Source: a virus. From it: 36,350 nucleotides of DNA. The position numbers and the translations under genes are program-made. The stretch lies in the UHGV virus genome UHGV-0207457. One strand, written 5' to 3'. Below the pieces are notes generated by a model. That model was given only the letters and a program-made list of their open reading frames with translations, did no database searches and was not told the DNA's origin. Shown piece by piece: positions 6,052 through 25,836 of this stretch. The number at the start of each line of letters is the position of its first letter. Within the stretch, counting starts at the first letter, position 1.

Positions 6052-6073
6052 GTTAGGTCAACCCTTTGGCGTC

Positions 6074-7258: not shown

Positions 7259-7266
7259 TAATTTTT

Positions 7267-7292: not shown

Positions 7293-7304
7293 TATCTGTA
7301 GGTA

Positions 7305-7331
7305 TAAAAAAAGCCAACCCCGAAGGATTGG
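7305..7331 (-). terminator. Intrinsic terminator for the leftward 7341-8206 operon
   Basis: On the - strand: GGCCAATCC-TTCG-GGGTTGGC followed by TTTTTTT. Confidence 0.6.
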
Positions 7332-7340
7332 CCTAGAGAA

Positions 7341-7571
7341 TCAAATTCCTGTTGCTTCTACCATTTCACCGTCAACCTGAACAAAGAATTTCAAATCAAC
7401 TTTATGTAGGGATTTGTATAGCTGGGCTATAGATAAGCCATGCTCATTTAATACCCGTTCTTTGTTCTCTTTACCTTTCGGTGCTTGATAGTATGCTTTT
7501 ACAATCGCTGCCAGTTGTTCACGATTAAAACGGGCAGGGCGACCGCGAGTAGCTTTAGTAGTCATAGTCAT
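7341..7571 (-). CDS. Small HTH DNA-binding protein (76 aa)
   Basis: ATG at 7571 preceded by GGAGAAA (the track start at 7598 is GTG); TRGRPARFNREQL and HGLSIAQLYKSLHK look like an HTH. Confidence 0.5.
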   Translation of the reverse strand: MTMTTKATRGRPARFNREQLAAIVKAYYQAPKGKENKERVLNEHGLSIAQLYKSLHKVDLKFFVQVDGEMVEATGI

Positions 7572-7600
7572 TTTCTCCAAATTAAAGTGAATGTTCACCT

Positions 7601-8206: not shown

Positions 8207-8293
8207 ACAACCCCCTTAAATCTTAATACCCGTATTTATCAAAATATCAACAATTTAATAAATACCTTCATATTTCGTAATGAGGGTAATTAC

Positions 8294-10198
8294 ATGAAAC
8301 TGATTTCTAATAAGGCAAAATTAAAAAAGATTCTCAGAAATATCACTGCTGCAATTCGCCCACCTAAAGCAATGAAACCTAGCGAGTGGGTAGAGGCTAA
8401 CGTAGTGGCTACCGATGGTGTTAAAGCCGGATCTCTAATTAAATTGCATCCCTTCCAACGTGGAATGATGGACGCGATCACCGAAGACCGTAGAAAAATT
8501 GTGCTAAAGTGCTCGGCACAGTTGGGTAAAACTCTTGTGCTAAACGGTATTATCTTTCACAGGATCGCCAGTAACCCTACTAATATCGGTGTTTTGCAAG
8601 CGAACGTTCGAGAATTGAACTCATGGATTGCGGGTAAGGTGAAGCCAGTATTAGAGGCAACCCCAGAATTAAAGGCGATGATCACCGACAAATCAGATCG
8701 CAATGCCGTTAACAACTCATCGATTATTCAGCTTCGTAACGGATCATTCATGTATTTCATGTCGCTGAACAGTCCATCACACTTGCGCGGTAAGACACTG
8801 CCTTTGATTATTCTGGATGAAGTTGATGCGGCTGATGAGTCAGACGAAGGGAACCCGATCCAGCTAGCGGAACAACGCGCAACCACTTTCGGTGATGATG
8901 CAAGGATCGTAATTGCTTCTACTCCAACTTCGCGGGATGGGGCGATAAACCAACAATGGGAACTCTCGGATAAAAGAAAATACCACGTCGTTTGCCAGCA
9001 TTGCGGACACAAACACGTAATGGAATGGAGTAGAGTATTCTTTGATTGGCATGTAATCAATGGTAAATCACTGCCGAATCCAGACACAGCCGTTTACCGT
9101 TGCCCGTCATGTGAAACTGATTGGTCAGAACCAGATCGCCTCCGTGCTGTTGCTCAGGGAGAATGGGTCGCCACCGAACCAAATGCGGAAGTAATCGGTT
9201 TTCATGCTAACCGCCTTATGTCTCCGTTTAGTTCTATCCGTGCGTGTGTGGTGGACTTTGCTGATAGCTACGCGAATATGTCACTGGCAACGTTCTATAA
9301 TGTGGTGCTCGGTGAAACCTTCGATGATCTTAACGAAGACCGCACAGCCGACGAACTGGAAACGCTGAAAACTGACATTAGCTTAGATAATATTCCTGAT
9401 GATGTTCTGGCTCTGGTAGGTGGAGTTGACCAGCAAAAAGACCGTCTGGAATCTACCTTGCTGGGTATCTCTCGTAAGGGGATATGCGTAGTTGATCACC
9501 GATCATTCTATGATGTGAACTGCGAACGCCACGAATCGCCAGCATATGACCAGCTTTATAACTTCCTGAAAGCGAAATTCTATACCCGATCCGGTGAACG
9601 AATCCCGATGCTATCTGCTTTCGTGGACTCATCGAACGGACGAGCTACAAACGTGATCTACCGTTTTTGCACTAGGTGGCAAAACCTATGCGCCATTAAA
9701 GGCGCAAGTAATGCTGATGCTCCAATCCTTCCGGCTAAGGACACAAGAACGGGTGGTTTTACCCTTAAAATTCTGGGCGTAAACAACCTTAAAACGATGA
9801 TCCGTGAAATGATTAACCGGAACTTGAGAGATGGCGATCCTCACACTGTCTTCCAGATTGGCGACGTTCCTGATGACTATTGCGAGCAATTGCTTTCTGA
9901 ACAGTTGAAACGGCAGGGTAATACCACACGTTGGGTAAAAGTTGGTCAGCAACGAAACGAGGCGCTCGACTGCCTGGCTTATTCCTATGCTGCTTCTCGC
10001 CATGTACTCAATAAAATGTCATGGGAAAAACTCGAAGCCATCAAAGATAGTTTGAACCGTGAACCAGAAGAATCCGTAGAAGCTCCTAAATCGCAATCTG
10101 ACGAGAAAATAGAAGAAACTAAGCCAATCACACGACCACAACGTCAAAACATCGCCAGACGCCCAAATAGAGGCCGTGGCTGGGTAACATCGTTCTAA
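8294..10198 (+). CDS. Terminase large subunit, lambda gpA-like (634 aa)
   Basis: Walker A-like SAQLGKT, Walker B ILDEVD, zinc-finger-like CQHCGH...CPSC; size and position ahead of the portal. Confidence 0.85.
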   Translation: MKLISNKAKLKKILRNITAAIRPPKAMKPSEWVEANVVATDGVKAGSLIKLHPFQRGMMDAITEDRRKIVLKCSAQLGKTLVLNGIIFHRIASNPTNIGVLQANVRELNSWIAGKVKPVLEATPELKAMITDKSDRNAVNNSSIIQLRNGSFMYFMSLNSPSHLRGKTLPLIILDEVDAADESDEGNPIQLAEQRATTFGDDARIVIASTPTSRDGAINQQWELSDKRKYHVVCQHCGHKHVMEWSRVFFDWHVINGKSLPNPDTAVYRCPSCETDWSEPDRLRAVAQGEWVATEPNAEVIGFHANRLMSPFSSIRACVVDFADSYANMSLATFYNVVLGETFDDLNEDRTADELETLKTDISLDNIPDDVLALVGGVDQQKDRLESTLLGISRKGICVVDHRSFYDVNCERHESPAYDQLYNFLKAKFYTRSGERIPMLSAFVDSSNGRATNVIYRFCTRWQNLCAIKGASNADAPILPAKDTRTGGFTLKILGVNNLKTMIREMINRNLRDGDPHTVFQIGDVPDDYCEQLLSEQLKRQGNTTRWVKVGQQRNEALDCLAYSYAASRHVLNKMSWEKLEAIKDSLNREPEESVEAPKSQSDEKIEETKPITRPQRQNIARRPNRGRGWVTSF

Positions 10199-10270
10199 TA
10201 ACTCGCCGTCCTTCGGGGCGGCTTACTCCTAAATATTGTTAATCCAATAACAATTAAATAAGGGGTGATT

Positions 10271-10765
10271 ATGAGTTTAGAACTAATTCCCTTAGTAATT
10301 CGTAAAGGCGAAAAAATCACGCTGGCGAATGAAGAGGGTGTAACAATTCAGGTAGGAAATAGTAAAGGTATCATTTATCAGGTTGATGATACTCCGGCTA
10401 ATCACGAGATTAAAACCTTAGATTTTGCCGAGGGTAAATATACCATCGTAACCACTTTGGAAGAAGAACTGGTATCAATGCAGGAATTAACTGTATTGCC
10501 AGTATTCGCCAAACAATCCAAAAAAGAACATCTGCGGGAGACTATCGCCAAAATCGAGCAAGTTATTTTCGCCCGTTTATCTGGGGACGAAGCCGCATTA
10601 TCTCAAATGACCGTGAAAGGGAATACTTTCGCCTATGAGTCATTAGGTGTTCTCCAGCAATTAAAGACTGATTATGAACGTCAACTGTCTAAATTAATTC
10701 AAGCCGAACGACGTAAACAGGGAATTAGCCCGATTAAAAATATCAAATTACGTCTTACGCGATAA
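10271..10765 (+). CDS. Head morphogenesis / head-tail joining protein (164 aa), in the position of lambda gpW
   Basis: ATG at 10271 with AGGGG RBS (track start 10265 is GTG); between terminase and portal. Confidence 0.55.
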   Translation: MSLELIPLVIRKGEKITLANEEGVTIQVGNSKGIIYQVDDTPANHEIKTLDFAEGKYTIVTTLEEELVSMQELTVLPVFAKQSKKEHLRETIAKIEQVIFARLSGDEAALSQMTVKGNTFAYESLGVLQQLKTDYERQLSKLIQAERRKQGISPIKNIKLRLTR

Positions 10766-10775
10766 GGGGTAAATC

Positions 10776-12287
10776 ATGTTTAATCTTTTTCGACGCAATA
10801 AGGCGGTAGAAACTCCAGTTAAAACTAATCACCGCCAGCAACAACAAAAAATCTTTATCGACAAACAAGTAGAAAAATTCCAGAAAGATTTGTCTAAGCG
10901 TTCTTTGGGCTTAGTTGGTGATCGCATTGATGGATCGCTTCAACAAGATACTATCACAGGAACCTTCAATAAGGCTCTCAAATCGAATGGTAAGCGCCTT
11001 TATGACCAGGGTCGTACTCTGGCCTTAAACACTTCCGTAGGCAGTCGCTACACGCAATACATCACCGATATGGTGGTAGGTACTGGCCTAGATCCGAAGC
11101 CGTCAGTTGTTAAATCAAATGGAAAACTTGATAGCGCACTGAATAAGCAGATCGAGAATGCTTTCTGGAAGTGGGCGCAGAATGCTAAACGCTTCTCCCG
11201 CAATGGTCGTTTTAACTTCCGTGAACTGCTGGTAATGGCTGAACGTGAGCGCGTTATGGGTGGTGAGTGCTTCATCGTTTTAACCAAAGAAAACAATGAG
11301 TTAAATGTTTCTATCCTGTCTGCTGATAAGTGCGACTGGTCGCTAAACCGTGAAGTAAGCAAAGACCGTGCGATATATCAAGGTGTGGAGTATGACGTAG
11401 AGACGATGAAGCCCGTAGCATACTGGTTTCGTAAAATCAACCTACTGACTCAGACTTACACAGGTGATAACTATCGCGTAGATGCTTCGCAAGTATGCCA
11501 TTATTATCAACCACTTGCGGCTGAATCTCTGCGTGGTGTGACTGACTTCCTGCCAGTGATTAAGGATATCGCACATCAAGACGCATTCCGCGAAGCTGTA
11601 CTGGTCCAGAAACGAATTTCAGCTAGTAGCATGGCGTTCATCGAGCGTCCGAAAGATTCTGGTGACGATTTTGATACTGGTGAAGATGATGAACAATATC
11701 AAGCGCCGGAAGTTATTCACGATTTCGCGCCGGGTACTATTCAGGAATTGCCGGAAGGGGCAACGATCAAGAGTATTCAATCCACGCAAAGCGGCGATGA
11801 TTTCAATTCATTTAACGCTGGTATGTTCACTAGCATAGCAATGGGTCTTGGCGTGTTCAATCAGGGCTTAACTGGCGATACTAGCCAAATAAATTACAGC
11901 GCTGCACGCTACGGCGAATTACTTCAAAGAACGCGCGTTAAAGCACTGCAAAACAAATTAATTGAAACAGTGGTATTGCCAATTTTCGAAGCGTATCTGC
12001 GTCATTATTCCGCGCGTGGTATTGTTCCGATTCGTATTACTGCAATTCCGCATATTATCGATAACACTACTATTATTCGTCCGCGTTTTGAATCCGTCGA
12101 TCCATTTAAAGACGTAAGCGCCGAGATTGCTTTAATTGATAACGGACTTAAATCACGTACTGCCGTTATATTGGAACGTGGTGATGATCCTGAAAAAGTA
12201 TTCTCAGAGATTCAAGCCGAAAAAAGCGCACTAAATATTATCGTTGATGGCGAGGGTGAAGAAAAAAATTCCCCAGCCGATCCCTAA
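10776..12287 (+). CDS. Portal protein (503 aa), lambda gpB-like
   Basis: Size, acidic C-terminus and position between terminase and the protease-capsid gene; RBS GGGG. Confidence 0.75.
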   Translation: MFNLFRRNKAVETPVKTNHRQQQQKIFIDKQVEKFQKDLSKRSLGLVGDRIDGSLQQDTITGTFNKALKSNGKRLYDQGRTLALNTSVGSRYTQYITDMVVGTGLDPKPSVVKSNGKLDSALNKQIENAFWKWAQNAKRFSRNGRFNFRELLVMAERERVMGGECFIVLTKENNELNVSILSADKCDWSLNREVSKDRAIYQGVEYDVETMKPVAYWFRKINLLTQTYTGDNYRVDASQVCHYYQPLAAESLRGVTDFLPVIKDIAHQDAFREAVLVQKRISASSMAFIERPKDSGDDFDTGEDDEQYQAPEVIHDFAPGTIQELPEGATIKSIQSTQSGDDFNSFNAGMFTSIAMGLGVFNQGLTGDTSQINYSAARYGELLQRTRVKALQNKLIETVVLPIFEAYLRHYSARGIVPIRITAIPHIIDNTTIIRPRFESVDPFKDVSAEIALIDNGLKSRTAVILERGDDPEKVFSEIQAEKSALNIIVDGEGEEKNSPADP

Positions 12288-12333
12288 TAACCAACGGGGG
12301 GCGCAATGCCCCCAATTAATTAAAGGTGATTAA

Positions 12334-14340
12334 ATGCTTAAATTTCGCCGCGAACTTAACGGTTACGGTGGAGTTATTAACGAAGGGCATAACGATCAAT
12401 ACGAATTTGAAATTGCTTTCTCCAGTGAACAGCCTTATCAGCGCCAATTCTGGGATGAGCAAAATCAAGAAATGGTGGTATTAGATGAAATTCTGGTACA
12501 TACACCGGAAGCGGTTGATCTGTCTCGTCTGAATAATAACGCTCCGTTGCTGTTTAATCATAATTTCGATAATCATTTAGGTGTCGTTTGTAACGCTCGA
12601 ATCGATGCGGATAAAGTAGGCCGTGCGACCGTTAGATTCTCTAAGCATGGCACTTTGGCTAATGATATTCGTAATAAAGTCATTGAAGGTACGATGGAAA
12701 AAATTTCTGTCGGTTATGACATTAAAGAATATCACATCGATTATGCCAAAGGACAATTGATTGTTACTAAGTTTGTTCCTTTCGAATTAAGTTTTGTTAC
12801 GGTCCCGGCGGACGATTCGGTCGGTTTAAATCGCTCTCTAAATACTATCACAGTTAATTTGGAGGCTAAACGCGATATGACTAAAGAACAAATCGAAGAA
12901 ATCAAAGAAGAACAAGAACCCGCTCAGGTTGAAGAAACTCCGGTAGAAGAAAATAAAGAATCGGAAGTTGAAGAAACTCAAGAGCGCCAAGTTGAAGAGA
13001 ATAAAGAAGATGAAAATCTCGAAGACGGAAAAGACGCTGAACATCCTGAAAGTGTTGATGATGATAGTTCAACTGTTCGGGAAACAGAAGAAGTAAAAGA
13101 AGAACGTGAAGCCGTTCCGGTTGAAGAAGAAAAAACCGAGGAAGTGGCTGAACGTTCCGAAGAAGACGAATTAGAAATCCGCGAGATCGCGCGGGAACTA
13201 AATATTGACGACGAAGAATTAAAACGCGCATTGGCAATTAAAGACATGACGCCGGAAGCATTCCGCACTAAGGCACTAAATAACATTACCAATGCTCAAC
13301 GTATTAACGAACAAATTAATAAGGAACAAATCATGGAAAAAACTTTCGATCTTAATAACGTAATCCGCTCCCTGGTAGATGGCGACGTGCTCGGCGCTAA
13401 CGAAGCTGAATATTCCGCTATGGCTGCTGGTGCTGCAATGCAGCGTGGTCGTGCTGCTCGCGGTGGCTCTGTATTCGTTCCGGCTGCTGCTCTGCGTGCT
13501 GCTTCCGAAGGTAACACCAAAGCTACTCTGACCGCTGTTACTGATGAAAAACTGCTGACTGAATCCTACATCGAAATGCTGTTGCCTCAGAGTGTTTTAG
13601 GCCGCCTCGGTGTAACCGTTCTGTCTGGCCTGACTTCCCCGATCGCTGTTCCGAAAATGACCGCTTCCAGCGTCGAAGCCTTTGGTTTTGTTGACGAAAA
13701 TGGGGCTGCCCCCGAGTCACATGCGGAATTTTCGAACGTGAAAATGGCTCCTAAGACGTTCGCTGGTGGGAATCCGATCAGCAGAGCTAGCATAAAGCAA
13801 GTTCCCGGCATCGCTACCCTGATCACTGATCACATTAACAAATCTGTTCGGATCAAACTGGAACAACTGATTCTGTCTGACAAAGACAACGAGCGCGGTC
13901 CGGCTGGCCTGGTTAAGCAACTGGTAGACGCGGGTCGCGTTACTAAGAAAGCCGCTTTCTCTTACAAAGACTTCCTGAAAGAAATTGCAGCACTGACCGA
14001 CGCTGGCGTTCCTGCTCAGGCGATCAAGTTTGCGATGAGCGGTGCAACTGCTGCTGAACTGGAATCTACCCTGAAAGATAACGGCGTTTCCGGTTATATC
14101 ATCGAAAACGGCAAACTGGCTGGTTACGAAGTAGTTACTTCTGGTGTTATCCCGGCAGACCACATCGTTCTGGGCGCGTTTGACGGTATCACCATTGGTG
14201 AGTGGGGCGGTCTTGAACTGGATATGGACGACACTACCTACCGCGCACAGTCTGCTATCGTTCCGCGAATCTGGGTAGACCTGGATTATGTTGTTACTCA
14301 GCCGGAAGCTCTGAAAGTTCTTCACATCTCCGCTGAATGA
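12334..14340 (+). CDS. Fused prohead protease - scaffold-like acidic linker - HK97-fold major capsid protein (668 aa); ends in TGA
   Basis: N-terminal ~170 aa carry prohead-protease-like motifs (LLFNHNFDNHLG, ISVGY, ELSFVTVPAD); residues ~180-300 are Glu-rich; C-terminal ~340 aa is capsid-like. Confidence 0.85.
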   Translation: MLKFRRELNGYGGVINEGHNDQYEFEIAFSSEQPYQRQFWDEQNQEMVVLDEILVHTPEAVDLSRLNNNAPLLFNHNFDNHLGVVCNARIDADKVGRATVRFSKHGTLANDIRNKVIEGTMEKISVGYDIKEYHIDYAKGQLIVTKFVPFELSFVTVPADDSVGLNRSLNTITVNLEAKRDMTKEQIEEIKEEQEPAQVEETPVEENKESEVEETQERQVEENKEDENLEDGKDAEHPESVDDDSSTVRETEEVKEEREAVPVEEEKTEEVAERSEEDELEIREIARELNIDDEELKRALAIKDMTPEAFRTKALNNITNAQRINEQINKEQIMEKTFDLNNVIRSLVDGDVLGANEAEYSAMAAGAAMQRGRAARGGSVFVPAAALRAASEGNTKATLTAVTDEKLLTESYIEMLLPQSVLGRLGVTVLSGLTSPIAVPKMTASSVEAFGFVDENGAAPESHAEFSNVKMAPKTFAGGNPISRASIKQVPGIATLITDHINKSVRIKLEQLILSDKDNERGPAGLVKQLVDAGRVTKKAAFSYKDFLKEIAALTDAGVPAQAIKFAMSGATAAELESTLKDNGVSGYIIENGKLAGYEVVTSGVIPADHIVLGAFDGITIGEWGGLELDMDDTTYRAQSAIVPRIWVDLDYVVTQPEALKVLHISAE

Positions 14341-14469
14341 ACTCCTGTAGAACCATCTGAACCTTCCCCCGATTCGGGGGAAGAAAATCTGATTCCTAAA
14401 CCGGAAGAAGATTCCCAGACGGTTACGGCGAAAGCCACAGCTAAAAAACAGCGTAAAACTAAAGAATAA
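14341..14469 (+). other. In-frame 42-codon extension after the capsid gene TGA; candidate programmed readthrough tail
   Basis: No stop from 14341 to TAA at 14467-14469; encodes TPVEPSEPSPDSGEENLIPKPEEDSQTVTAKATAKKQRKTKE; 20-nt core 14422-14441 is identical to 20337-20356. Confidence 0.5.
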
Positions 14470-14474
14470 TAATT

Positions 14475-14502
14475 AGCCCTGCCTAACGGTGGGGCTTTTT
14501 TG
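14475..14502 (+). terminator. Intrinsic terminator after the capsid extension
   Basis: AGCCCTGCCTAACGGTGGGGCT followed by TTTTTT; near-identical copy at 20390-20418. Confidence 0.65.
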
Positions 14503-14531
14503 TATGTAAATACTCCATAAAGGGGGTAACT

Positions 14532-14822
14532 ATGTTCAAATTATCAGAATCACAATTAAATCGAATGTTTAAAAGTGCTCCTGTATTTGTGGTGGAAGGT
14601 GGTAAATCAATTCGTGCTTATCATGAAATTACTACTACCGACGAATCAGGGGTAATGACAGAAACAGAATTTCTATTCTGTCGTGAGGGAGACTTAAAGC
14701 AAGGTGATATTGTCACAGTAGAAAACCAGCGTTTCAAAGTTCAATACGTTAAGCGTAATGGTGATAATACAACTGATTGCTTTATTACTCTGGCAGGGGG
14801 TACACATGCTCGCTATCGTTAA
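14532..14822 (+). CDS. Head-tail connector/adaptor protein (96 aa)
   Basis: Strong RBS AGGGGG; position directly after the capsid gene. Confidence 0.55.
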   Translation: MFKLSESQLNRMFKSAPVFVVEGGKSIRAYHEITTTDESGVMTETEFLFCREGDLKQGDIVTVENQRFKVQYVKRNGDNTTDCFITLAGGTHARYR

Positions 14823-15228
14823 TAATATGCCTAGACTGAAAATCAAACGCGCCTTGCAAGATATTATCGAACAAGATTTAGGTCTGGCTTTAAACGTAGA
14901 ACAAACTCAGCAAGGCTTTAGTGATGACGTGGTTTGTTGGATTACTGGTATGAATGAGACTTACACTAGGGTCCGTGGTGGTAATGCAATGCAAGCTGAA
15001 TGCGTTATCGAAATGCAGTTATATTCTCAGATTCATGAAACGAAAATTCATGAGGGTATTTGCCAGATAATCCAGATTCAGCCGGATAACCCACGATTTA
15101 AAGATTTGGGCTTCTCTATTTCAGATATCACTCCAGTAGCCTCTAATACCGATTATGACGATGATTCTAGTGATGGGGGTATCGTTGGGACACTTAGCCT
15201 TAAATTTTCTTATCTAGCGCGTTTTTAA
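14806..15228 (+). CDS. Head-tail joining / tail completion protein (140 aa)
   Basis: ATG at 14806 after AGGGGG, overlapping the previous stop (track start 14758 is upstream in the same frame). Confidence 0.55.
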   Translation: MLAIVNNMPRLKIKRALQDIIEQDLGLALNVEQTQQGFSDDVVCWITGMNETYTRVRGGNAMQAECVIEMQLYSQIHETKIHEGICQIIQIQPDNPRFKDLGFSISDITPVASNTDYDDDSSDGGIVGTLSLKFSYLARF

Positions 15229-15237
15229 GGGGTAATA

Positions 15238-16071
15238 ATGAATATTACACAAGATAACTTAGATATTTTCACTGGATCACATGTTGAAGTGTCGATCTCT
15301 AACCAGATAGACAATCAGGTCGACTTTTTCGATCCTAGCTTTAGTTCTATGGAGAACATCGCAGCATTCCCTACGCTAACCGAATCCACAGAGATAGAAA
15401 CTCTGGAAGAGTACGATCAGGACGCTACGGGGAAACTTGCTGGTTATCGTAGACTGGAACCGACAACACTCACATTAAACCGTGTTCTTGACGATGAACA
15501 TCAAGCAATGTTGATGAAAGCGGTAGAGGATAAAACACCTTTACGCTTCCGTATGTTCTATGTTGTGAACTCTGGCTATAGTGCTGCTAACACTGGTTAC
15601 TATGTCATCTATGACGCTTATGTCACTAGTCACAAAACCCGTGGCGCAGATAACAAAGCTGTAACACTGGAATTTAAACTTGAACCAGATGGCGGGATTT
15701 TGGCAAGGGGTATAGCGACCGAGGGAAAAATTCTGCGACAAGGGGATTATGGCGTAGGTGCAGGTGTACATCCATTCACGGGTCCAATTGATAGTGATGC
15801 TTTAGCAGGAAACCGTTTCGTAACTTACAAGGGAACTGCTAGCGGTAATCCATACTCAGCCGACACATCATTAATTCACCTTCAAGCTAATGAGCATGGC
15901 GCATGGCAATTAACCTGTAATACTTCCGGTGCACCACGTTTACGTGTCCGAAATATTCAGGAAAACGGTCGCTCTGAATGGATCAAGGTATATTCCACCA
16001 ATGAGAAACCGACACCTAGCGAAATTGGCGCAGTGGCTAAGACTGATAGAATCGACTTCGGTGAGTATTAA
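15238..16071 (+). CDS. Structural protein (277 aa) whose C-terminus shares a KPTPxEIGA module with the tail fibre; possible fibre-attachment/collar protein
   Basis: RBS AGGGG; C-terminal YSTNEKPTPSEIGAVAK parallels the fibre's YHEGDKPTPAEIGAYTK, with ~80% nucleotide identity across the 27-nt core. Confidence 0.6.
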   Translation: MNITQDNLDIFTGSHVEVSISNQIDNQVDFFDPSFSSMENIAAFPTLTESTEIETLEEYDQDATGKLAGYRRLEPTTLTLNRVLDDEHQAMLMKAVEDKTPLRFRMFYVVNSGYSAANTGYYVIYDAYVTSHKTRGADNKAVTLEFKLEPDGGILARGIATEGKILRQGDYGVGAGVHPFTGPIDSDALAGNRFVTYKGTASGNPYSADTSLIHLQANEHGAWQLTCNTSGAPRLRVRNIQENGRSEWIKVYSTNEKPTPSEIGAVAKTDRIDFGEY

Positions 16072-16100
16072 GATTGCTTACCTAAATAAAACATGACGCG

Positions 16101-16134
16101 GGGAGGTTAACGCCTCCCTTATTCCTGTTTTATG
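16101..16134 (+). terminator. Intrinsic terminator
   Basis: GGGAGG-TTAACG-CCTCCC followed by a T-rich tract. Confidence 0.5.
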
Positions 16135-16146
16135 TGAGGTGATTAG

Positions 16147-19100
16147 ATGCAATCAATCCAATTTAAACGCACACAAACGGCTGGTAAAAAGCCGACGCCG
16201 GAACAATTATCACAGGGTGAGATCGCCTTACAACTGGCGGACCATGTGATTTACACCAAAGACAAAAATAATAACGTAGTCCAAATTAGTGTTTCTCCAG
16301 AAAAACACGCTGAACTTAACACTAAAGTAGACAATAACAAAACTAGCACTGACCGTGTTATTGCTTCCAACAAACAAGAGGCCGCTAATAATCTGGCTAG
16401 TGCTAAAGCTGAACTGAATCAGACTATTACCACTAAAGACACCGCAACCAATAAGCGCATTGATGCTACCAACACCACTGTTAGTAACTTAACCCAGACA
16501 GTTACGGCAAATAAAACCGATGCCGACACTAAGATCAATAACCTTACGGGGACCGTATCTGCGAATAAGACCGCAATTGAAAGAACCGTTGCCGCAAACA
16601 AATCTGATGCAGATAGCAAACATGCAGCTTTAACGAAAACGGTCACTGACAATAACACCGCGATTAACAACAAGGTTAATACCACTAACACCAACGTTAG
16701 CAACTTAACTAAAACTGTTACTGCAAATAAAACCGATGCAGATAACAAAATTTCTAGCTTAACTAGCACGGTTGCAGCTAACAAGACAGCGATCGAAAAG
16801 ACTGTTTCCGACAATAAGAAAGACGCGGATACTAAGATTACCAATCTTACTGGCACTGTTAACAGCAACCATACCGCAATTAACAACAAGGTAGACCAGA
16901 ATAAATCTTCTACTGATGCCGCAATTGCAGCCGCTAACAAACGAATTGATGGTATTGAAGGTAGCAATGATGCTCTTTACATCAAGAAGAATACCAATAC
17001 TAAGCATGGTGGGTATCTGTTAAGCAAGACAGCTAACTATTTGGAAGACCAGACAGCGAGAGATCTTAACTACTTTGGCGCTTTCCGTACCAATGGTCAA
17101 GATGGACTCATGGATCTAACTCTTAACGTTCCTCATTCTGCCGGTAAAGCGCACGGTCGCGGATTTACTTTCCGTTATGCGTCTGGTGGATCTCGTGTTG
17201 AAACCTATGGTTTTGATAGAGAAGGACAGAAGAACTTTAGCTATAAAATGTATCACGAAGGGGATAAACCGACTCCTGCTGAAATTGGCGCATATACCAA
17301 AGGCGAAATTGATAAGATGTTTATTAAAAATGTCACAATGTCTGTTCCTTCTGGTAGTGAATCCCGTGCTTATTTCAAGATTGCTACGGCTACGATCCCG
17401 CAAAATGGTCGTATGGTAATGCTTCGTATCTTCGGTGGTAACGGTTATAACGTTAACTCCTATGATCAGGTTGACTTTTTAGAAATTGTTATCCGTTCCG
17501 GTAACAATAACCCGAAAGGCGTTAGTATTGCTGCTTATCGTCGAAACTCTTTGAACGTTCATCAAGTATTTGCGGTTAATACTTCCGGTGATAACTACGA
17601 CATTTACGTTAACTACGGTCGTTATACTGATAACGTTATTGTCGAATATGGTAAGACTAGCGGTGTTTCACTGACTGTTCATGACACCCCAGCTATGACT
17701 AACGTTAAGCCGTCTACTGGTGTTACAGATGGACGTGTTATTACAATGTTCAACACCGAAAACAAAGCCGGAACATTGATGTTTGATAATAACGGACAGG
17801 GAACATATGATATTGTCAGTTTGAATAACGATTCAGGTACTGGAAAAAAATATCTTCGTAAATTCCGTAGTAAAGCCGCAGAAACAATCTGGCATGAAAC
17901 TGTTCAAGGTAACGTATATCGTTTAGCGACTGGCACTACCGATTCTAGCGAAGTTCTACGAATCACTGGTCGCACCATGTTTACTGGTAAAGGCGTATTG
18001 GATGCTGGACAAAACGTTCTTAGATTAGAACGTCCTAGTAACCAATCTAACTACATTGAATGGCAGGACCGCCGCAATGGTGCTGATGCTCGTCAAGGTT
18101 GGATCGGTTTTGGTAGTGCGGAAACAAATAACTTCATGTGGTATAGCGATCATGGGAAAAACTCATTTCAGCTAGAAGCTAACGGTCAATGTTCTATATC
18201 CACTGGTGCAAATAAACTTGTATATACCAATGGTGAATATTGCTCTGGCAACTCTAACGCATATCGTATGGCATTTGGTAACTATGGCGCATTCTGGCGT
18301 AATGATGGTGGTAAAGTTTATCTTCTGTCGACGGATGAAAACGATAAGTTGGGCGGCTGGAATACTTATCGACCATTCATTTACGATCTTACTTCCGGTA
18401 ACGTTCAATTAGGCGGTGATGGTAACGAAGATGCATTAACGTTAGAACGTGCTTCTCGTGCCGCTCGTTTTAGCAATAACGTTTACATTAAGAAAGGTTT
18501 TTTGACTTTTGATGCTGGTCGGTCTGGTTCTCGCGATTATATTCGATTTAATCATTGGGGCGATAGTAATAACGCCCGTGATAACGTCTTGTACATAGAA
18601 GATAGTCAAGGCCGACATTTTAGCACAGAGCGTGCGATGGGTACTGGTGCTCTTAAGGCAAACTTCTTAGGCGATCTTGAAGTCGGTGGTAAGTTTACCT
18701 GGGGTAAAAATACAGCTACATCCAGCTTTAATATTCGTGCATGGGGTAATGATTCTCGTAAGCAAGTATTAGAATGCGCGGATGAAAGTGGTTGGCATTG
18801 GTATACCCAACGTGCTGGCGGTCCGGGCACAAATGAAATTAACTTTAGTGTTAATGGCAGTATTCACTCACAAGGGATTGCAACTTCCGGTAATATTAAA
18901 ATAACTGGACCTGATATTGAATTTCGTCGCACTGGCAATAAGCATATCTGGTTTAGAGATCCGAACGGCTTAGAATTAGGTTTGATGTACTGCGATGATG
19001 CTGGTGTTATCCGCTTCCGTGGTCAGAAACAAGGTCAAACTTGGAAACTTGCTGATAAAATGATTCATCTTGAGGCGGGGACTGTCGGCGGGTCTGATAA

Positions 19101-19731
19101 AGGTTTGATTCGTGGTAATGTTGCTGGTGGTAGCTGGGCTAGCTGGCGTGATCGTTCTGCCGGAATCCTCGTAGACTGTCCGAACTCAACCGATTCCGCT
19201 CATAACATCTGGAAAGCTACTCATTGGGGTAAATATCACATTGCAGCAATGGGTGTGCACGTTCCTAGCGGTACTATCACCAATGCTTTAGCTCGCCTAA
19301 ACGTTCACGACGCCAACTTTGACTTTAACGCTGCGGGTGATTTTAGCGCAGGTCGTAACGGTAGCTTTAATGATGTTTACATTCGCTCTGACTCCCGTTT
19401 GAAGATTAACAAGGAAGAATTACAGGACGGCGCATTAGAGAAAGTAAACTCCCTGAAAGTCTACACCTACGATAAAGTTAAATCTCTTAAAGACCGTAGT
19501 GTGATTAAACGCGAAGTAGGTATTATTGCTCAGGATCTGGAAGAAGTATTGCCGGAAGCAGTAGGTATTCAATCCACCGAAGATCCAGAACAACCGGAAG
19601 CAATTAAGACTATTTCTAACTCTGCTGTTAATGCCTTGATTATTAAAGCTATTCAGGAAATGGACGCCAAATATCAAGCTAAGATTGAAGCATTGACTAA
19701 AGAGATTGCCGAACTCAAAGCAACTAAATAA
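16147..19731 (+). CDS. Side (long) tail fibre, T4 gp37 / lambda Stf-like, with tandem shaft repeats and C-terminal intramolecular chaperone (peptidase S74-type) domain (1194 aa)
   Basis: N-terminus MQSIQFKRTQTAGKKPTPEQLSQGEIALQL resembles T4 gp37; YLRKFRSKAAETIWHETV resembles gp37 YLRKVRAKSGGTIYHEIV; two ~72-aa tandem repeats (~16480-16910); C-terminal SDSRLKINKEE...AIQEMDAKYQAKIEALTKEIAELK is chaperone-like. Confidence 0.85.
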   Translation: MQSIQFKRTQTAGKKPTPEQLSQGEIALQLADHVIYTKDKNNNVVQISVSPEKHAELNTKVDNNKTSTDRVIASNKQEAANNLASAKAELNQTITTKDTATNKRIDATNTTVSNLTQTVTANKTDADTKINNLTGTVSANKTAIERTVAANKSDADSKHAALTKTVTDNNTAINNKVNTTNTNVSNLTKTVTANKTDADNKISSLTSTVAANKTAIEKTVSDNKKDADTKITNLTGTVNSNHTAINNKVDQNKSSTDAAIAAANKRIDGIEGSNDALYIKKNTNTKHGGYLLSKTANYLEDQTARDLNYFGAFRTNGQDGLMDLTLNVPHSAGKAHGRGFTFRYASGGSRVETYGFDREGQKNFSYKMYHEGDKPTPAEIGAYTKGEIDKMFIKNVTMSVPSGSESRAYFKIATATIPQNGRMVMLRIFGGNGYNVNSYDQVDFLEIVIRSGNNNPKGVSIAAYRRNSLNVHQVFAVNTSGDNYDIYVNYGRYTDNVIVEYGKTSGVSLTVHDTPAMTNVKPSTGVTDGRVITMFNTENKAGTLMFDNNGQGTYDIVSLNNDSGTGKKYLRKFRSKAAETIWHETVQGNVYRLATGTTDSSEVLRITGRTMFTGKGVLDAGQNVLRLERPSNQSNYIEWQDRRNGADARQGWIGFGSAETNNFMWYSDHGKNSFQLEANGQCSISTGANKLVYTNGEYCSGNSNAYRMAFGNYGAFWRNDGGKVYLLSTDENDKLGGWNTYRPFIYDLTSGNVQLGGDGNEDALTLERASRAARFSNNVYIKKGFLTFDAGRSGSRDYIRFNHWGDSNNARDNVLYIEDSQGRHFSTERAMGTGALKANFLGDLEVGGKFTWGKNTATSSFNIRAWGNDSRKQVLECADESGWHWYTQRAGGPGTNEINFSVNGSIHSQGIATSGNIKITGPDIEFRRTGNKHIWFRDPNGLELGLMYCDDAGVIRFRGQKQGQTWKLADKMIHLEAGTVGGSDKGLIRGNVAGGSWASWRDRSAGILVDCPNSTDSAHNIWKATHWGKYHIAAMGVHVPSGTITNALARLNVHDANFDFNAAGDFSAGRNGSFNDVYIRSDSRLKINKEELQDGALEKVNSLKVYTYDKVKSLKDRSVIKREVGIIAQDLEEVLPEAVGIQSTEDPEQPEAIKTISNSAVNALIIKAIQEMDAKYQAKIEALTKEIAELKATK

Positions 19732-19738
19732 TAAAAGT

Positions 19739-19757
19739 CGGGGGACTAGTTCCCCCG
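19739..19757 (+). terminator. Stable hairpin after the fibre gene (weak U-tract)
   Basis: CGGGGGA-CTAG-TCCCCCG. Confidence 0.4.
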
Positions 19758-19787
19758 TAATAACAATTTTAATTAAGGGGTAATTCT

Positions 19788-20258
19788 ATGTCTCAATTTA
19801 ATGATATTTTTACTGGTGGTCTGGTAAGTCTGTTCTATCACGCTGATACCACTAACACCGCTCTCGATCACTCCGGTTACGAAGAAATTAAAGAGTGCGC
19901 TGGCTTCCCTGAAACTGCTATCGAGCGCGGTACTGTAGAAGTTAAATCCTTCTCTTCTCAGTACAACCGTAAGCTGGTAGGTAAACTGAATGTTCCTGAT
20001 CTGACTCTTACGGTGAATTACATCCCCGGGGATAGTGTCCATGAGAAGCTCATAAAGGCTGCCGAAGACGGTACTCGAATCCAGATTAAAGTAGAGTATT
20101 ACGTATCAGCGGATAAGCAGACTGGTATTCGCACCGCTTTCAACGGCTTTATTTCTAAAGTTGCTATGAACGGTGGCGATGAAGAAGTTGTAACCAAAGA
20201 GTTTACCTTCGCGGTGGACGGAAAGCCGATCAAACAGGAAATCTTCACTGCCGGATGA
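19788..20258 (+). CDS. Major tail (tube) protein, lambda gpV N-domain-like (156 aa); ends in TGA
   Basis: DLTLTVNYIPGDSVHEKLIKAAEDGTRIQIK parallels lambda gpV [33 protein letters not shown]; placed ahead of the G/T chaperones and tape measure. Confidence 0.65.
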   Translation: MSQFNDIFTGGLVSLFYHADTTNTALDHSGYEEIKECAGFPETAIERGTVEVKSFSSQYNRKLVGKLNVPDLTLTVNYIPGDSVHEKLIKAAEDGTRIQIKVEYYVSADKQTGIRTAFNGFISKVAMNGGDEEVVTKEFTFAVDGKPIKQEIFTAG

Positions 20259-20384
20259 ACTAACGAAGAACTTCCTTTAATAGAACCGGAACCACTACCG
20301 GAACATGAAGCGGTGGTGATTCCAGAAGTAGAAGAAGTTACGGCGAAAGCCACAGCAAAACGAGGCCGCAAGGCTAAGAATTAA
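20259..20384 (+). other. In-frame 41-codon extension after the tube gene TGA; candidate programmed readthrough tail
   Basis: No stop from 20259 to TAA at 20382-20384; encodes TNEELPLIEPEPLPEHEAVVIPEVEEVTAKATAKRGRKAKN; shares the 20-nt core and terminator with the capsid extension. Confidence 0.5.
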
Positions 20385-20389
20385 TTTTA

Positions 20390-20418
20390 AGCCCTGCCTT
20401 AATGGTGGGGCTTTTTTA
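20390..20418 (+). terminator. Intrinsic terminator after the tube extension
   Basis: AGCCCTGCCTTAATGGTGGGGCT followed by TTTTTT. Confidence 0.65.
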
Positions 20419-20432
20419 TTGGAGTTATCAAA

Positions 20433-20939
20433 ATGGCAAATGTCGTTAAAGTTCCTGGCTGGATCGGGTCATCTGCTGTATCGGTGACGGGTAAGCGATG
20501 GATGAAAGAAGCACTAACAGCTTTAAAAGTTCCGGCTCCGCGTAATATGTCGGCAATGGCTGGTCGTGGTATGGATACGGTTGTAGCTACTGCTGCATGG
20601 TCTACTTCATTGGGTAATAACTGGGGTGTAACTGCTTCAAACTATCCGGTAACTGACATGCGCGGTAAAGGGTCAATGGAGAACCCCGAAAACGTGGGCG
20701 TAGGGCGTCTGATTGGCGTTATCGTTGGTCAATTCAATGGCGGTACTCCTACTATGGCTGTATATCTCCAGAACGGTAGAGCGGGGAATATAACCGTTAA
20801 TTTGGGTGGTGCTACTGTCACTGTTCCTTATAACAGTATGCAAAGTGGTTTTCATTACTATTGGTTAAGCAATCCTCCGGCTGCTTTCCTCAATAACATT
20901 AAGAAGACTGGCACTAAGCAGACTTTGAAAATCTCTTAA
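20433..20939 (+). CDS. Hypothetical tail-associated protein (168 aa)
   Basis: RBS GGAG; Gly/Ala/Thr-rich; between the tube gene and the chaperone genes. Confidence 0.55.
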   Translation: MANVVKVPGWIGSSAVSVTGKRWMKEALTALKVPAPRNMSAMAGRGMDTVVATAAWSTSLGNNWGVTASNYPVTDMRGKGSMENPENVGVGRLIGVIVGQFNGGTPTMAVYLQNGRAGNITVNLGGATVTVPYNSMQSGFHYYWLSNPPAAFLNNIKKTGTKQTLKIS

Positions 20940-20981
20940 ATTCTAAATAAACATATCGAATTAACTTAAGAGGAAACAAGA

Positions 20982-21290
20982 ATGAATATTAATGAAATGC
21001 TGAAAGCTCTTTCTCCGAAACGCGAATCTCTGACCATCGGTGGATTCACTTTCTATGCTCGCCCTATGTCAGTAAAAGAATTTAACGAACATGTTTTCAA
21101 TACCGATAAAGATGACCGTGATGAACGTTCGATTCTTCGTTGTATTGAAGATGAAGACGGTAAACCGGTATTTGAATCTATGGAACAAGTTAAGGCACTG
21201 TATACTAACGTCCGCAGTGAATTAATCGGTTTGGTTGCTCAAGCATCATTGATGCAAGATCCGGCGGTAATTGAAAACGAGGTAAAGTAA
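20982..21290 (+). CDS. Tail assembly chaperone, gpG-like (102 aa)
   Basis: RBS GAGGA; small acidic protein directly upstream of the tape measure with a downstream overlapping -1 frame ORF. Confidence 0.6.
   Translation: MNINEMLKALSPKRESLTIGGFTFYARPMSVKEFNEHVFNTDKDDRDERSILRCIEDEDGKPVFESMEQVKALYTNVRSELIGLVAQASLMQDPAVIENEVK
21282..21290 (+). other. Candidate -1 frameshift site GTA-AAG-TAA at the stop codon (tRNA-Lys AAG to AAA slip) giving a G-T fusion
   Basis: The -1 frame opens at 21275 and runs to 21661; its overlap with the G frame is only 16 nt and contains A-AAG immediately before TAA. Confidence 0.35.
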
Positions 21291-25416: not shown

Positions 25417-25836
25417 ATGCTAAAAACTAGGCTTATCACCGATTACATCAATTCTTTAATAGGTCAGGAGTTCGTTCAGGGTGAGAATGATTGCAATCTC
25501 ATTGCATGTAAGATCATCGATATTCTCGCTGGTACTGACCTATATAATTCTCTTTATAAAAAATATTCAACTAAAGAAGAAGGCTTGAAAATCTGCAAAG
25601 AATTAAGCGGGTATTCAAACATCCTTCAACCAATTAAGAAACATTTCAAATTAGTCACTGATGATTTACAGGACGGCGACTTACTGGTCACAGCCCACAA
25701 ATTAGGAAACCGTAATTATTATTCCGTAGTTCCTCATTATTCCGGTTATGGCCTCGTTGAAGAAGATGGTATCTGGATGACCATTCCTGTTTCAGACATT
25801 GACTATGAACAAGTTTATAGATTCGGGGGTGAATAA
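25417..25836 (+). CDS. Tail assembly protein gpK-like with NlpC/P60-type Cys/His motif (139 aa)
   Basis: ATG at 25417 after GGAGG; GENDCNLIACKI (Cys) and VVPHYSGYG (His) resemble the NlpC/P60 catalytic pair; stop overlaps the J start (TAATG). Confidence 0.6.
   Translation: MLKTRLITDYINSLIGQEFVQGENDCNLIACKIIDILAGTDLYNSLYKKYSTKEEGLKICKELSGYSNILQPIKKHFKLVTDDLQDGDLLVTAHKLGNRNYYSVVPHYSGYGLVEEDGIWMTIPVSDIDYEQVYRFGGE

Follow-up and report, generated by a model that had tools for sequence, protein, structure and literature searches.

The window analysed here, a stretch of 36,350 nucleotides of the virus genome UHGV-0207457, contains a fibre gene that lies between head-completion genes and the gene for the major tail tube protein (Table 1). 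As described from the sequence earlier, small ORFs and an endolysin gene come after the J-like gene (25836-29612), and the fibre gene sits in the middle of the morphogenesis module. That description saw in this position the result of a modular rearrangement. The suggestion was not supported: The position is shared by the relatives from E. coli, by Buttiauxella and Atlantibacter, and by the module with which the DCP80 record begins, and each time the fibre gene comes immediately after the gene for a tube paralogue whose C-terminus is gp36-like. The position within the module is the normal architecture of this lineage. No phage that has been isolated and sequenced belongs to this lineage; a tblastn search of 50,697 records with the 277-residue paralogue gave a single match, to a record that is probably chimeric, and a megablast search with positions 6000-30000 gave, apart from the fibre gene, no match to any phage record. 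No member of the Tfa family was found among the neighbours of the fibre, and the fibre gene is not located downstream of J.

Table 1. Genes, protein segments and signals at the fibre locus (positions in the window).
Feature	Position	Strand	Basis or remark
Tail-tube paralogue with gp36-like C-terminal module, 277 aa	15238..16071	+	proposed fibre socket/adaptor
Fibre ORF, gp37 homologue, 1194 aa	16147..19731	+	gp37 homology, Pfam domains
gp37-type N-terminal anchor, residues 1-55	16147..16311	+	motif IQFKR..AG..P....L..GE.A..L.D..IYTKD
Asn/Thr/Ala/Lys-rich shaft, residues 56-289	16312..17013	+	composition, hydrophobic periodicity
Repeat copy 1, residues 108-179	16468..16683	+	self-alignment
Repeat copy 2, residues 180-251	16684..16899	+	self-alignment
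RB49 gp37-homologous shaft, residues 290-919	17014..18903	+	73% identity to RB49 gp37
Gp34_trimer domain, residues 645-746	18079..18384	+	Pfam PF21446, 1.4e-26
Distal tip, exchangeable cassette, residues 920-1080	18904..19386	+	comparison with RB49 and relatives
S74 intramolecular chaperone, residues 1081-1194	19387..19728	+	Pfam PF13884
Major tail tube gene, 156 aa	19788..20258	+	phrog_158, 2e-21; separates fibre from gp38-like gene
Intrinsic-terminator-like hairpin	20389..20413	+	10-pair stem followed by T run; between tube and gp38-like genes
Short gp38-type protein, 168 aa, proposed tip adhesin	20433..20939	+	Gp38_N and ~120-aa non-polyglycine domain

The fibre ORF is real, intact and under purifying selection. 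Homologues are present in many genomes of E. coli, Shigella and E. albertii, with at least 120 protein clusters at 80-100% identity, and the NCBI records for E. coli include a protein that is 100% identical to the 1194-residue fibre. The dN/dS values range from 0.1 to 0.25, both for every segment in comparison to the prophage alleles and, for the homologous segments only (residues 290-1194), in comparison to RB49 gp37. Judged by its sequence, this tail-fibre gene of an E. coli prophage is related over nearly its full length to the gene for gp37 of RB49, the distal long-tail-fibre protein of a virulent T4-like phage: Residues 290-1191 are 75% identical to residues 71-977 of RB49 gp37 over 911 residues, and the gene shares 75-82% nucleotide identity with RB49-like phages. 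The likeness goes far beyond the internal gp37-like blocks that had been noticed earlier. The gp37 ancestry also holds for the N-terminus, as had been proposed: Residues 1-51 share 37% identity with residues 4-54 of RB49 gp37, and nine positions are invariant in an alignment of the fibre with gp37 of RB49, PEi20, JK1 and CHI14. Across the alternative fibres found in this family of prophages, the anchor remains 73-100% conserved, whereas the more distal segments are replaced.

Behind the anchor, residues 56-289 probably form a trimeric alpha-helical coiled coil. Residues 55-275 contain no proline, four glycines and no aromatic residue, the hydrophobicity has a period of 3.6 residues (power of 111 versus a shuffle maximum of 44.5 +/- 11), a sub-repeat structure is visible at offsets of 29, 43, 72 and 101 residues, and related fibres give weak matches to the Pfam families Apolipoprotein and Filament in this region. 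In RB49 gp37, the place of this coiled-coil-like repeat shaft is taken by only about 16 residues. The insert after the anchor comprises roughly 235 residues of probable coiled coil and includes an old duplication of 72 residues; with a rise of 0.15 nm per residue, some 220 residues would, if all were helical, extend the fibre by about 30 nm relative to RB49 gp37. The sequence-only reading had reported the duplication as two tandem repeats of about 216 nucleotides with about 75% nucleotide identity. The duplication is present, but the identity does not reach this value: 140 of the 216 nucleotides are identical (64.8%), with 69% in the best window of 150 nucleotides, and Tandem Repeats Finder did not report the duplication at 16468-16899. 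At the protein level, 51 of 72 residues (71%) are identical, as compared to an in-frame background identity of 28.7 +/- 3.6% within the fibre gene. The idea that the repeats are a ready substrate for length variation was not supported: The longest exact run in register is 17 nucleotides, 31 of the 52 codons that differ between the copies are synonymous and 21 non-synonymous, and the same two units are found in 108 of 120 homologues, nearly all of which have lengths of 1190-1204 residues. The copy number of the repeats is essentially fixed.

The RB49-like core, which matches T4 gp34 (4UXE) and the Mu fibre (5YVQ) among PDB entries, is followed by a tip with a history of its own. Identity to the RB49 tip amounts to 92% over residues 920-1078, and dS relative to RB49 is 0.42 in the tip and 0.93 in the core. 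In the relative CE0007a, the tip is of unrelated sequence and shares 91% identity with that of Cognac49 gp37, and twelve relatives fall into five tip types. In our reading, the tip cassette and the other distal parts have repeatedly been exchanged with virulent phages of the genera Krischvirus and Tequatrovirus and with P2-like phages.

The C-terminal domain is of the S74 chaperone type, as the sequence-only reading had recognized. Pfam Peptidase_S74 (PF13884) matches residues 1081-1139 (E value 1e-13; 51.7 bits versus a cutoff of 22), and a profile of the domain finds gp37 of S16 (6F45_A, 3.3e-17), MYRF (7DC3, 5e-8), 8JOV (1e-7) and gp12 of phi29 (3GUD, 4e-4) in the PDB. In S74 domains of the endosialidase type, the catalytic Ser-Lys dyad lies at the beginning of the domain and has the spacing S-x4-K, which is also present in the fibre (Ser1081/Lys1086). 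Ser1081, Asp1082 and Lys1086 are invariant in nine diverse fibres that share 25-70% identity. Autocleavage is thus predicted to occur before Ser1081. The AlphaFold2 model of tip and chaperone (residues 881-1194) had a mean pLDDT of 35.5 and was confident in the terminal helix only. Taken together, the evidence supports a side tail fibre that is derived from gp37 and combines a repeat shaft with an intramolecular S74 chaperone, as had been described. The fibre probably works, however, together with the products of two neighbouring genes that had been missed, a tube paralogue and a small gp38-type adhesin.

The gene directly upstream encodes the paralogue of the tail tube protein. Its residues 9-163 share 29% identity with the tube protein of the window (E value 7e-13), which itself falls just below the cutoffs of the lambda-like Pfam families Phage_TTP_11 (26.6 versus 28.4 bits) and Phage_TTP_12 (25.7 versus 26.1 bits). 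AlphaFold2 modelled the N-terminal domain with block means of pLDDT between 74 and 91 over most of residues 11-160, with dips to about 50 near residues 51-70 and to 59 near residues 111-120, and Foldseek identified gpV of lambda as its best match (7e-9). For the C-terminal domain, the confidence of the model was low. This part has a modest similarity to the C-terminal end of gp36 of RB49, to which gp37 is joined: Residues 180-277 align with it end to end (31% identity over 105 residues, pairwise E value 1e-5), both proteins end with IDFG-x-aromatic, and the DFG-x-aromatic terminus is common to the paralogue family and to all four gp36 sequences examined. A profile of the family matches RB49 gp36 at 1.3e-11, and the reciprocal BLAST search covers all 105 residues. 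A Pfam search with the paralogue gave no gp36 match, and hhalign of the family against the four gp36 sequences recovered nothing beyond the generic fibre motif Y..NKPT..D.GA (78% probability). Weaker matches of the module to the C-termini of gp34 proteins show that it is a recurrent fibre element.

These data can also be read in another way, to which we assign about one chance in three: The 277-residue protein may be a decorated tube protein, or a protein in the position of the tail terminator, that carries a knob on its surface, much like the Ig-like domain in gpV of lambda, and the fibre may attach elsewhere, e. g. at a distal collar as in the case of lambda Stf or T5 p132/pb1. The plain tube fold of the N-terminal domain, the tube-plus-extra-domain layout shared with gpV, and the modest similarity to gp36 that includes a motif common in fibres are all compatible with such a role. 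Moreover, the known side fibres of siphoviruses attach via collars at the junction of the tube and the distal tail protein (PMC12617516), and a gene after the tape-measure gene in the window encodes another protein, a candidate for the distal tail protein, that gives a weak match to a pb9-type domain. Three observations, however, argue for a function of the paralogue in fibre attachment. First, the N-terminus of the fibre is of the gp37 type, which continues from gp36 in the T-even phages (PMC5537660, subunit order), and searches of Pfam, PHROG and PDB sequences with the fibre revealed no similarity to a collar of the Stf type. Second, in a set of 1820 ORFs only the paralogue family matches the last 105 residues of RB49 gp36 over the full length. 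Finally, in all relatives examined the gene that lies directly 3' of the paralogue gene encodes a fibre whose N-terminus is of the gp37 type. This adjacency is kept at 37-39% identity in Buttiauxella and Atlantibacter and at 33% in the module of the DCP80 record, and the paralogues of these three, with 468-699 residues, have retained the same extreme C-terminus.

The second proposed partner is encoded two genes downstream of the fibre, behind the tube gene and a strong terminator-like hairpin that is nearly the same in sequence as the one found after the capsid gene (14475-14496). The 168-residue protein contains the Gp38_N domain (PF21721; 4.2e-15, 55.9 bits versus a cutoff of 25), matches phrog_1121 'tail fiber adhesin' over its full length (3.2e-35), and shares 14 invariant positions within residues 1-44 with gp38 of JK1, CHI14 and PEi20 and with ORF66 of an Stx phage. 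It lacks glycine-rich motifs and aligns with the short gp38 proteins, but not with the polyglycine region of JK1. Its closest homologues in sequenced phages are ORF66 of the Stx podophage (45-47%) and gp38 of PEi20 and CHI14 (about 35%), and in the Stx phage P13374 and the T4-like phages PEi20 and CHI14 the homologous gene lies directly 3' of a fibre gene with an S74 domain. The suggestion that the S74 chaperone stands in place of a separate assembly gene is at odds with the presence of this gene: The RB49 and S16 fibres have both a self-cleaving chaperone and a gp38 cap (PMC9569957, PMC6851490), thus the chaperone does not replace the partner gene. In RB49, one gp38 monomer attaches to gp37 once its C-terminal chaperone has cleaved itself off (PMC9569957), and short gp38 proteins of the architecture found here are proven determinants of the host range in RB42 and RB43 (PMC3157838).

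It is less probable, though worth considering, that the fibre is self-sufficient, i. e. that the S74 domain folds it and receptor binding is a task of its own tip (residues 920-1080), as with pb1 of T5, whereas the gp38-like gene is an unrelated moron, a remnant, or encodes a cap for another structure. The gene is indeed located behind a terminator-like hairpin, it is absent from E275a and from four relatives that have S74 fibres (Z0117EC0005, DEC5A, EC416 and 14EC017), and the tip is exchanged more often than any other cassette, as one would expect of a part that binds the receptor. Moreover, the three N-terminal alleles of the gp38-like protein do not track the tip type, with the same tip occurring with allele A or C. 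S16 gp38 docks with three conserved tryptophans at the apices of its attachment helices (PMC6851490). When these positions were mapped onto the gp38 alignment by homology, Trp10 and Trp23 were conserved, whereas the third position is occupied by Asn38 in all three prophage alleles and by methionine in ORF66. On the other hand, RB49 and Cognac49 likewise pair similar gp38 proteins with different gp37 tips, and in RB49, with its 92% identical tip, the host-range mutations map to gp38, the tip adhesin (PMC9569957). Gp38_N has no known role beyond attachment to the gp37 tip (PMC6851490). Finally, among 5426 complete E. coli genomes the gp38-like gene was detected in 19, always in this prophage family and beside a fibre with an RB49-type core, an association that is confounded with a linked tube allele. 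The gene is absent from five relatives with other fibres; it has been kept in the relative 14EC029, in which the fibre ends in a P2 gpH-like segment and lacks the S74 domain.

On balance, we consider it somewhat better than an even chance that the fibre, the gp36-like paralogue and the gp38-type tip protein constitute a three-gene side-fibre system of T-even ancestry in a lambda-like siphovirus prophage. In such a system, we infer that the fibre docks to the paralogue and is capped by the gp38-like protein: (i) By homology to RB49-type gp37, the fibre would trimerise with the help of its chaperone, which would then cut itself off by means of the Ser1081/Lys1086 dyad to leave a mature chain of 1080 residues. 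(ii) The gp37-type N-terminus may plug into the gp36-like module of the paralogue, and the latter may form a tube-type ring in the tail and play the part that gp36 has in the T-even fibre. (iii) With the chaperone gone, the 168-residue protein would cap the tip and serve as the actual receptor-binding protein, as is the case in RB49, S16 and RB43. That the element is a defective or cryptic prophage, whose fibre never reaches infectious particles and which serves as a reservoir of fibre modules, is improbable: The element of about 35 kb has no recognisable replication or CI-type repressor genes, the lineage has no isolated phage in the phage collection, and several relatives carry IS insertions in the fibre slot, but the genes for head, tail, lysis and integration in the window form a complete set and are intact, strong purifying selection acts on each segment of the fibre, and many intact alleles exist across many strains.

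Among the known systems, gp37 of RB49 (Krischvirus, Straboviridae) is the closest counterpart: It is colinear with the fibre from the N-terminal motif through the C-terminal chaperone, the S74 domain has the same Ser/Lys dyad, and the gp38-type gene is not adjacent to the fibre gene in either case (PMC3157838). In contrast to RB49, the fibre described here belongs to the prophage of a lambda-like siphovirus, whose non-contractile tail is encoded by genes for tube, G/T, tape measure and J. These tail genes are of the lambda type; homologues of gp34, gp35 or a free-standing gp36 were not found among the ORFs scanned in the window, and gp36 would be represented only by the C-terminal module fused to the tube paralogue. 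With the gp37-gp38 tip of the S16/T2 type (PDB 6F45), the system shares the combination of an S74 chaperone on the fibre and a separate small Gp38_N protein; however, this protein has neither the polyglycine sandwich domain nor one of the three docking tryptophans, and no sequence similarity could be detected between the tip upstream of the chaperone and the part of S16 gp37 that binds gp38. [quoted passage not shown] Here, the fibre gene is not located 3' of J, its product has a gp37-type N-terminus in place of an Stf collar domain, folding would depend on the intramolecular chaperone instead of Tfa, and attachment is proposed to occur via the tube paralogue instead of a dodecameric collar. 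Finally, the L-shaped fibre of T5, consisting of pb1 and the p132 collar, is likewise the side fibre of a siphovirus, has an S74 chaperone that cleaves itself off and relies on a dedicated anchor protein, as proposed here; in T5, however, the tip of pb1 itself binds the receptor and gp38 is absent, and the anchor is an Ig-like collar protein, whereas in the prophage a tube paralogue with a gp36-like end may fulfil this function.

Three genes in the window, encoding the fibre, the tail tube paralogue upstream of it and a gp38-like protein, probably form a T-even-derived half-fibre system that has been grafted on a siphovirus tail; we infer that the tube paralogue provides the attachment. The sequence-only reading had recognized both the fibre and its C-terminal chaperone correctly, and both are ordinary in kind. 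The best PHROG families for the fibre are annotated as 'long tail fiber protein distal subunit' (1.4e-147), and Pfam assigns residues 645-746 to Gp34_trimer (1.4e-26, above threshold). In a megablast comparison of the fibre gene with 50,697 phage records, the only matches were gp37 genes of RB49-like T4-type myoviruses (Krischvirus), with 75-82% identity over nucleotides 868-3516 of the ORF; outside the fibre gene, the region 6000-30000 had no match to any record of this phage collection. The protein alignment with RB49 gp37 gives 75% identity between fibre residues 290-1191 and gp37 residues 71-977 and 37% between fibre residues 1-51 and gp37 residues 4-54; the N-terminal motif is common to gp37 of PEi20, JK1 and CHI14. 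Because both the core and the N-terminus are conserved in this way, the fibre is a full-length RB49-type gp37 with an insertion of about 235 residues (56-289) behind the N-terminal anchor (residues 1-55). The protein has 100% identical E. coli entries at NCBI (an identical fibre is encoded, for instance, in assembly GCA_035787035.1), and its relatives form at least 120 clusters at 80-100% identity in E. coli, Shigella and E. albertii, with lengths almost all within 1190-1204 amino acids. The dN/dS values are 0.1-0.25 for every segment of the fibre as compared to the prophage alleles, and likewise for the homologous segments as compared to RB49 gp37.

Positions of the half-fibre genes and of associated sequence features in the window
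Feature	Coordinates	Strand	Description
Tube paralogue ORF	15238-16071	+	277 aa
Fibre ORF	16147-19731	+	1194 aa, single long ORF
Repeat copy 1	16468-16683	+	fibre residues 108-179
Repeat copy 2	16684-16899	+	fibre residues 180-251
Terminator-like hairpin	20389-20413		ahead of gp38-like gene
gp38-like ORF	20433-20939	+	168 aa, just past tube gene (19788-20258)

Proline and aromatic residues are absent from the insertion, which has four glycines. A 3.6-residue periodicity of its hydrophobicity stands out well above shuffled sequences, and the insertion is built on a sub-repeat of 18+11 residues. It thus probably forms a trimeric α-helical coiled coil; with a rise of 0.15 nm per residue, about 220 residues would, if fully helical, extend over roughly 30 nm. 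The two tandem repeat copies within it are identical at 140 of 216 nucleotides (64.8%) and at 51 of 72 residues, as compared to 28.7 ± 3.6% for other 216-nt segments of the fibre gene aligned in frame with copy 1. The copies differ in 52 codons, 31 of them synonymously, and the longest in-register identical run is 17 nt. The tandem duplication is therefore real, but the nucleotide identity of about 75% originally attributed to it is wrong, and the duplication is hence older than first thought. Since the copies are so diverged, Tandem Repeats Finder did not report the 216-nt duplication in the region 15500-20500, and it was detected by offset identity instead. The expectation that the repeat would vary in copy number across relatives did not hold: both units are found at the same positions in 108 of 120 homologues, and with the nearly uniform protein lengths this means that the copy number is stable rather than polymorphic. 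On these grounds we dismissed the possibility that the 72-aa repeat is simply polymorphic in copy number. Nor does the spacing of exactly -216 nt in 39EVA reflect the neat removal of a single unit, as the whole shaft is only 53% identical and differently organized.

The C-terminal chaperone (residues 1081-1194) contains a Peptidase_S74 domain at residues 1081-1139 (Pfam, 1e-13, above threshold), and nine aligned fibres, which share 25-70% identity, all have Ser1081, Asp1082 and Lys1086. The profile of the domain identifies S16 gp37 in the PDB (6F45, 3.3e-17) and also matches the autoprocessing domain of MYRF (7DC3), the 8JOV fibre and the phi29 gp12 appendage (3GUD); the AF2 model of residues 881-1194, calculated from a shallow alignment, has a pLDDT of 35.5. 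Cleavage is predicted to occur before Ser1081, and this would result in a mature chain of 1080 residues. According to Efimov et al. (PMC9569957), RB49 gp37 bears a self-cleaving domain of the S74-chaperone kind.

It had been proposed that this chaperone is present in place of a separate assembly gene. In fact, the window does encode a putative gp38-type partner adhesin, and since S74 chaperones and gp38 normally coexist, as in S16 and RB49, the chaperone is no substitute for the partner gene. Pfam finds a Gp38_N domain (4.2e-15) in the gp38-like protein, and the match to phrog_1121 'tail fiber adhesin' (3.2e-35) extends from one end of the protein to the other; for some homologues, the RefSeq name is 'receptor recognizing protein Gp38'. 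Fourteen positions in the first 44 residues are invariant among this protein, gp38 of the T2-like phage JK1 and of CHI14 and PEi20, and ORF66 of the Stx phage P13374; the remaining about 120 residues are devoid of polyglycine motifs. The same architecture is found in the 174-aa gp38 of RB43 and RB42, in which mutations in the C-domain alter the host range (PMC3157838). In S16, the gp37 trimer is capped by one gp38 via an N-terminal helical bundle (PMC6851490), and capping works in the same way in RB49, in which g38 is likewise displaced from g37 (PMC9569957, PMC3157838). In P13374, PEi20 and CHI14, short gp38 homologues are encoded directly 3' of S74-bearing fibres. A homologue search with the gp38-like protein gave six matches, all from close E. 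coli/Shigella relatives. Among 5426 complete E. coli genomes, 19 have the gene, always in this prophage family and beside a fibre with an RB49-type core, and five relatives with other fibres are without it. The gp38-like protein thus probably caps the fibre tip. Several observations weaken this link: A terminator-like hairpin stands ahead of the gene, the presence of the gene is linked to the tube allele, and the S16-type third docking tryptophan is replaced by Asn38. In searches of the PDB with the full fibre and with a tip-plus-chaperone profile, S16 gp37 aligned with the chaperone only, and its gp38-binding part did not resemble the tip. Moreover, among 12 prophages no covariation was detected between the allele of the gp38-like N-domain and the type of fibre tip; three N-terminal alleles are shuffled independently of five tip types. 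The missing covariation is not decisive because RB49 and Cognac49 also combine similar gp38 proteins with unrelated gp37 tips (see also PMC9569957). About 10-12 residues among the first 45 distinguish the alleles, and the C-domain is almost invariant (window 20433-20600; loci L001, L003, L004 and L023-L030); 14 of 50 sites are variable in the N-domain and 12 of 118 in the rest (p = 0.005). This pattern is opposite to that described for gp38 of RB43 and RB16.

Residues 920-1080 of the fibre, the tip, constitute an exchangeable cassette. The tip is 92% identical to that of RB49, with a dS of 0.42 (window 18904-19386 versus 7918-8394 of the RB49 locus L002), and the corresponding values are 0.93 for the shaft core and 2.1 for the chaperone. 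Since the dS of the tip is much lower than that of the shaft core or the chaperone, these values indicate that the tip cassette alone was exchanged with a Krischvirus phage more recently. In E. coli CE0007a, the tip is unrelated to that of the window and 91% identical to the tip of Cognac49. As two tip alleles match different Krischvirus phages at more than 90% each, the comparison suggests that lytic myoviruses have swapped tip cassettes with resident prophages of E. coli repeatedly. Further relatives have fibre ends of the 39EVA type, the VTB type or similar to P2 gpH. In E. coli 14EC029 (L004, 6916-10191), the anchor, the repeats and the gp37 core are as in the fibre of the window, and the P2 gpH-like end shares 53-70% identity with P2-like phages; there is neither an S74 domain nor a Tfa-type gene. 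Despite this S74-less fibre, the gp38-like gene is retained.

Relatives (L005, L006, L007, L008 and L013) differ strongly in what lies between the tube paralogue and the tube gene: this hypervariable fibre slot can contain a pyocin-knob S74 fibre, three additional small ORFs or a set of three genes, among them one for a 'head spike fiber domain' protein. Different strains have insertions of IS2, IS421 and IS3-family elements in the slot, and a fourth strain has an ISKpn26-family element within the 14000-21000 region.

How might a myovirus half-fibre be held on this tail? The 277-aa tube paralogue has no match in Pfam or NCBIfam; Pfam gave nothing for its family at E values up to 1, and NCBIfam no match for any of nine proteins. 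The N-domain (residues 9-163) shares 29% identity with the tube protein of the window itself, and its AF2 model, with block-mean pLDDT values of 74-91 over most of residues 11-160 and lower ones near 51-70 and 111-120, is nearest to lambda gpV (7e-9). The C-terminal part resembles gp36: the last 100 residues of RB49 gp36 align end to end with residues 180-277 (31% identity, pairwise E 1e-5), and both proteins end in IDFG-x-aromatic, a DFG-x-aromatic end that the 277-aa family shares with four of four gp36 sequences examined. An HMM of the last 113 residues of the family retrieved RB49 gp36 from a set of 1820 ORFs at 1.3e-11, the best domain covering positions 16-113 and reaching the end of the protein; in the reverse search, the last 105 residues of gp36 matched the paralogue family over their full length and fibres only across a 17-residue motif. 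With hhalign, the family and the four gp36 sequences shared only a generic fibre motif; the module is also weakly similar to gp34 C-termini, and its AF2 model is of low confidence. In T-even fibres, the C-terminus of gp36 meets the N-terminus of gp37. The gp36 trimer is located between the knee and gp37 (PMC5537660). In every E. coli relative examined, the paralogue gene is immediately followed by the fibre gene, the first 55 residues of the fibre are 73-100% conserved, and the rest sometimes consists of unrelated modules. In Buttiauxella, two Atlantibacter genomes and a module in the DCP80 record, the paralogue (33-39% identity, 468-699 aa) has the same C-terminal end and precedes a fibre with a gp37-type N-terminus and then the tube gene. 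As this order is conserved from E. coli to Buttiauxella and Atlantibacter, the mid-module position, first thought to reflect a modular rearrangement, is the normal layout of the lineage. We tentatively suggest, at rather less than an even chance, that the tube paralogue is built into the tail as a ring whose gp36-like module continues into a T-even-type distal half-fibre, a siphovirus attachment not described so far. Because the gene occupies the position of the lambda tail terminator gene (synteny FII, Z, U, V), the ring could be at the head-proximal end of the tail. From there, the extra coiled coil of about 30 nm would bring a fibre of about 100 nm closer to the distal end of the tail, whose length would be about 120 nm (rough estimates; 810-aa tape measure). 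The idea that the 277-aa protein is the distal tail protein was rejected, as a candidate with a weak pb9-type domain is located after the tape-measure gene.

The window is essentially one prophage of about 35 kb, with a lambda gpA-like terminase, a portal and a protease-capsid fusion, followed by tail genes for an FII-like protein, the tube paralogue, the fibre, the tube, the gp38-like protein, G/T-like chaperones, the 810-aa tape measure and a distal tail protein. The J-like protein has a lambda J receptor-binding domain, and further genes encode an endolysin and, at 32155-33849 on the minus strand, a large serine recombinase. In the 668-aa product of the capsid gene (12334-14340), a prohead protease (Peptidase_S78) is fused to a Phage_capsid domain. 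Besides its complete set of virion and lysis genes, the element has a Rha/Ant-like regulator (window 1-8200 and 32155-35335; L001). The copy of the element in CE0007a lies between hicA and ydcR and disrupts hicB. No replication or CI-type repressor gene is recognizable in the element of about 35 kb, and the phage collection contains no isolated phage of the lineage. The 141-kb record of 'Escherichia phage DCP80' (L014, GenBank PQ671644), filed under Gaprivervirus (T4-like), has a siphovirus-type module of the window's lineage at 1-18560 (terminase-portal-capsid-tube paralogue-fibre-tube-tape measure) and looks like a chimeric assembly. The hairpin ahead of the gp38-like gene is nearly identical to one at 14475-14496; both are strong and terminator-like (AGCCCTGCC..GGTGGGGCT, then a T run) and stand after the tube gene and the capsid gene, respectively, the genes expected to be most highly expressed. 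The frame of the tube gene stays open directly beyond its TGA for 42 sense codons (20259-20387), up to a TAA just ahead of the terminator hairpin; the encoded peptide, with a Glu/Pro-rich start and a Lys/Arg-rich end, could extend the tube protein by readthrough, or the open frame could be due to chance (about 13% for 42 stop-free codons).

Mosaicism of tail fibres between unrelated phages is classical, and the fibre itself is thus no surprise. What is new is the extent of the exchange, about 900 residues that are 75% identical to gp37 of a virulent T4-like genus. The exchange of tips is relevant to host-range prediction and to the ways in which T-even phages used in therapy might gain new specificities. 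The three genes are not presented as one unit in current annotation: RefSeq labels are 'tail fiber domain-containing protein' and 'hypothetical protein', and the name gp38 is used in some genomes only. Possibly new is also the tube paralogue with its gp36-like end, which suggests how a myovirus half-fibre became compatible with a siphovirus tail. If this is true, the whole distal half-fibre (gp37 and gp38) would be interchangeable between virulent myoviruses and temperate siphoviruses, and the ring would be a third solution for fibre attachment besides the collar of lambda Stf and the p132 collar of T5.
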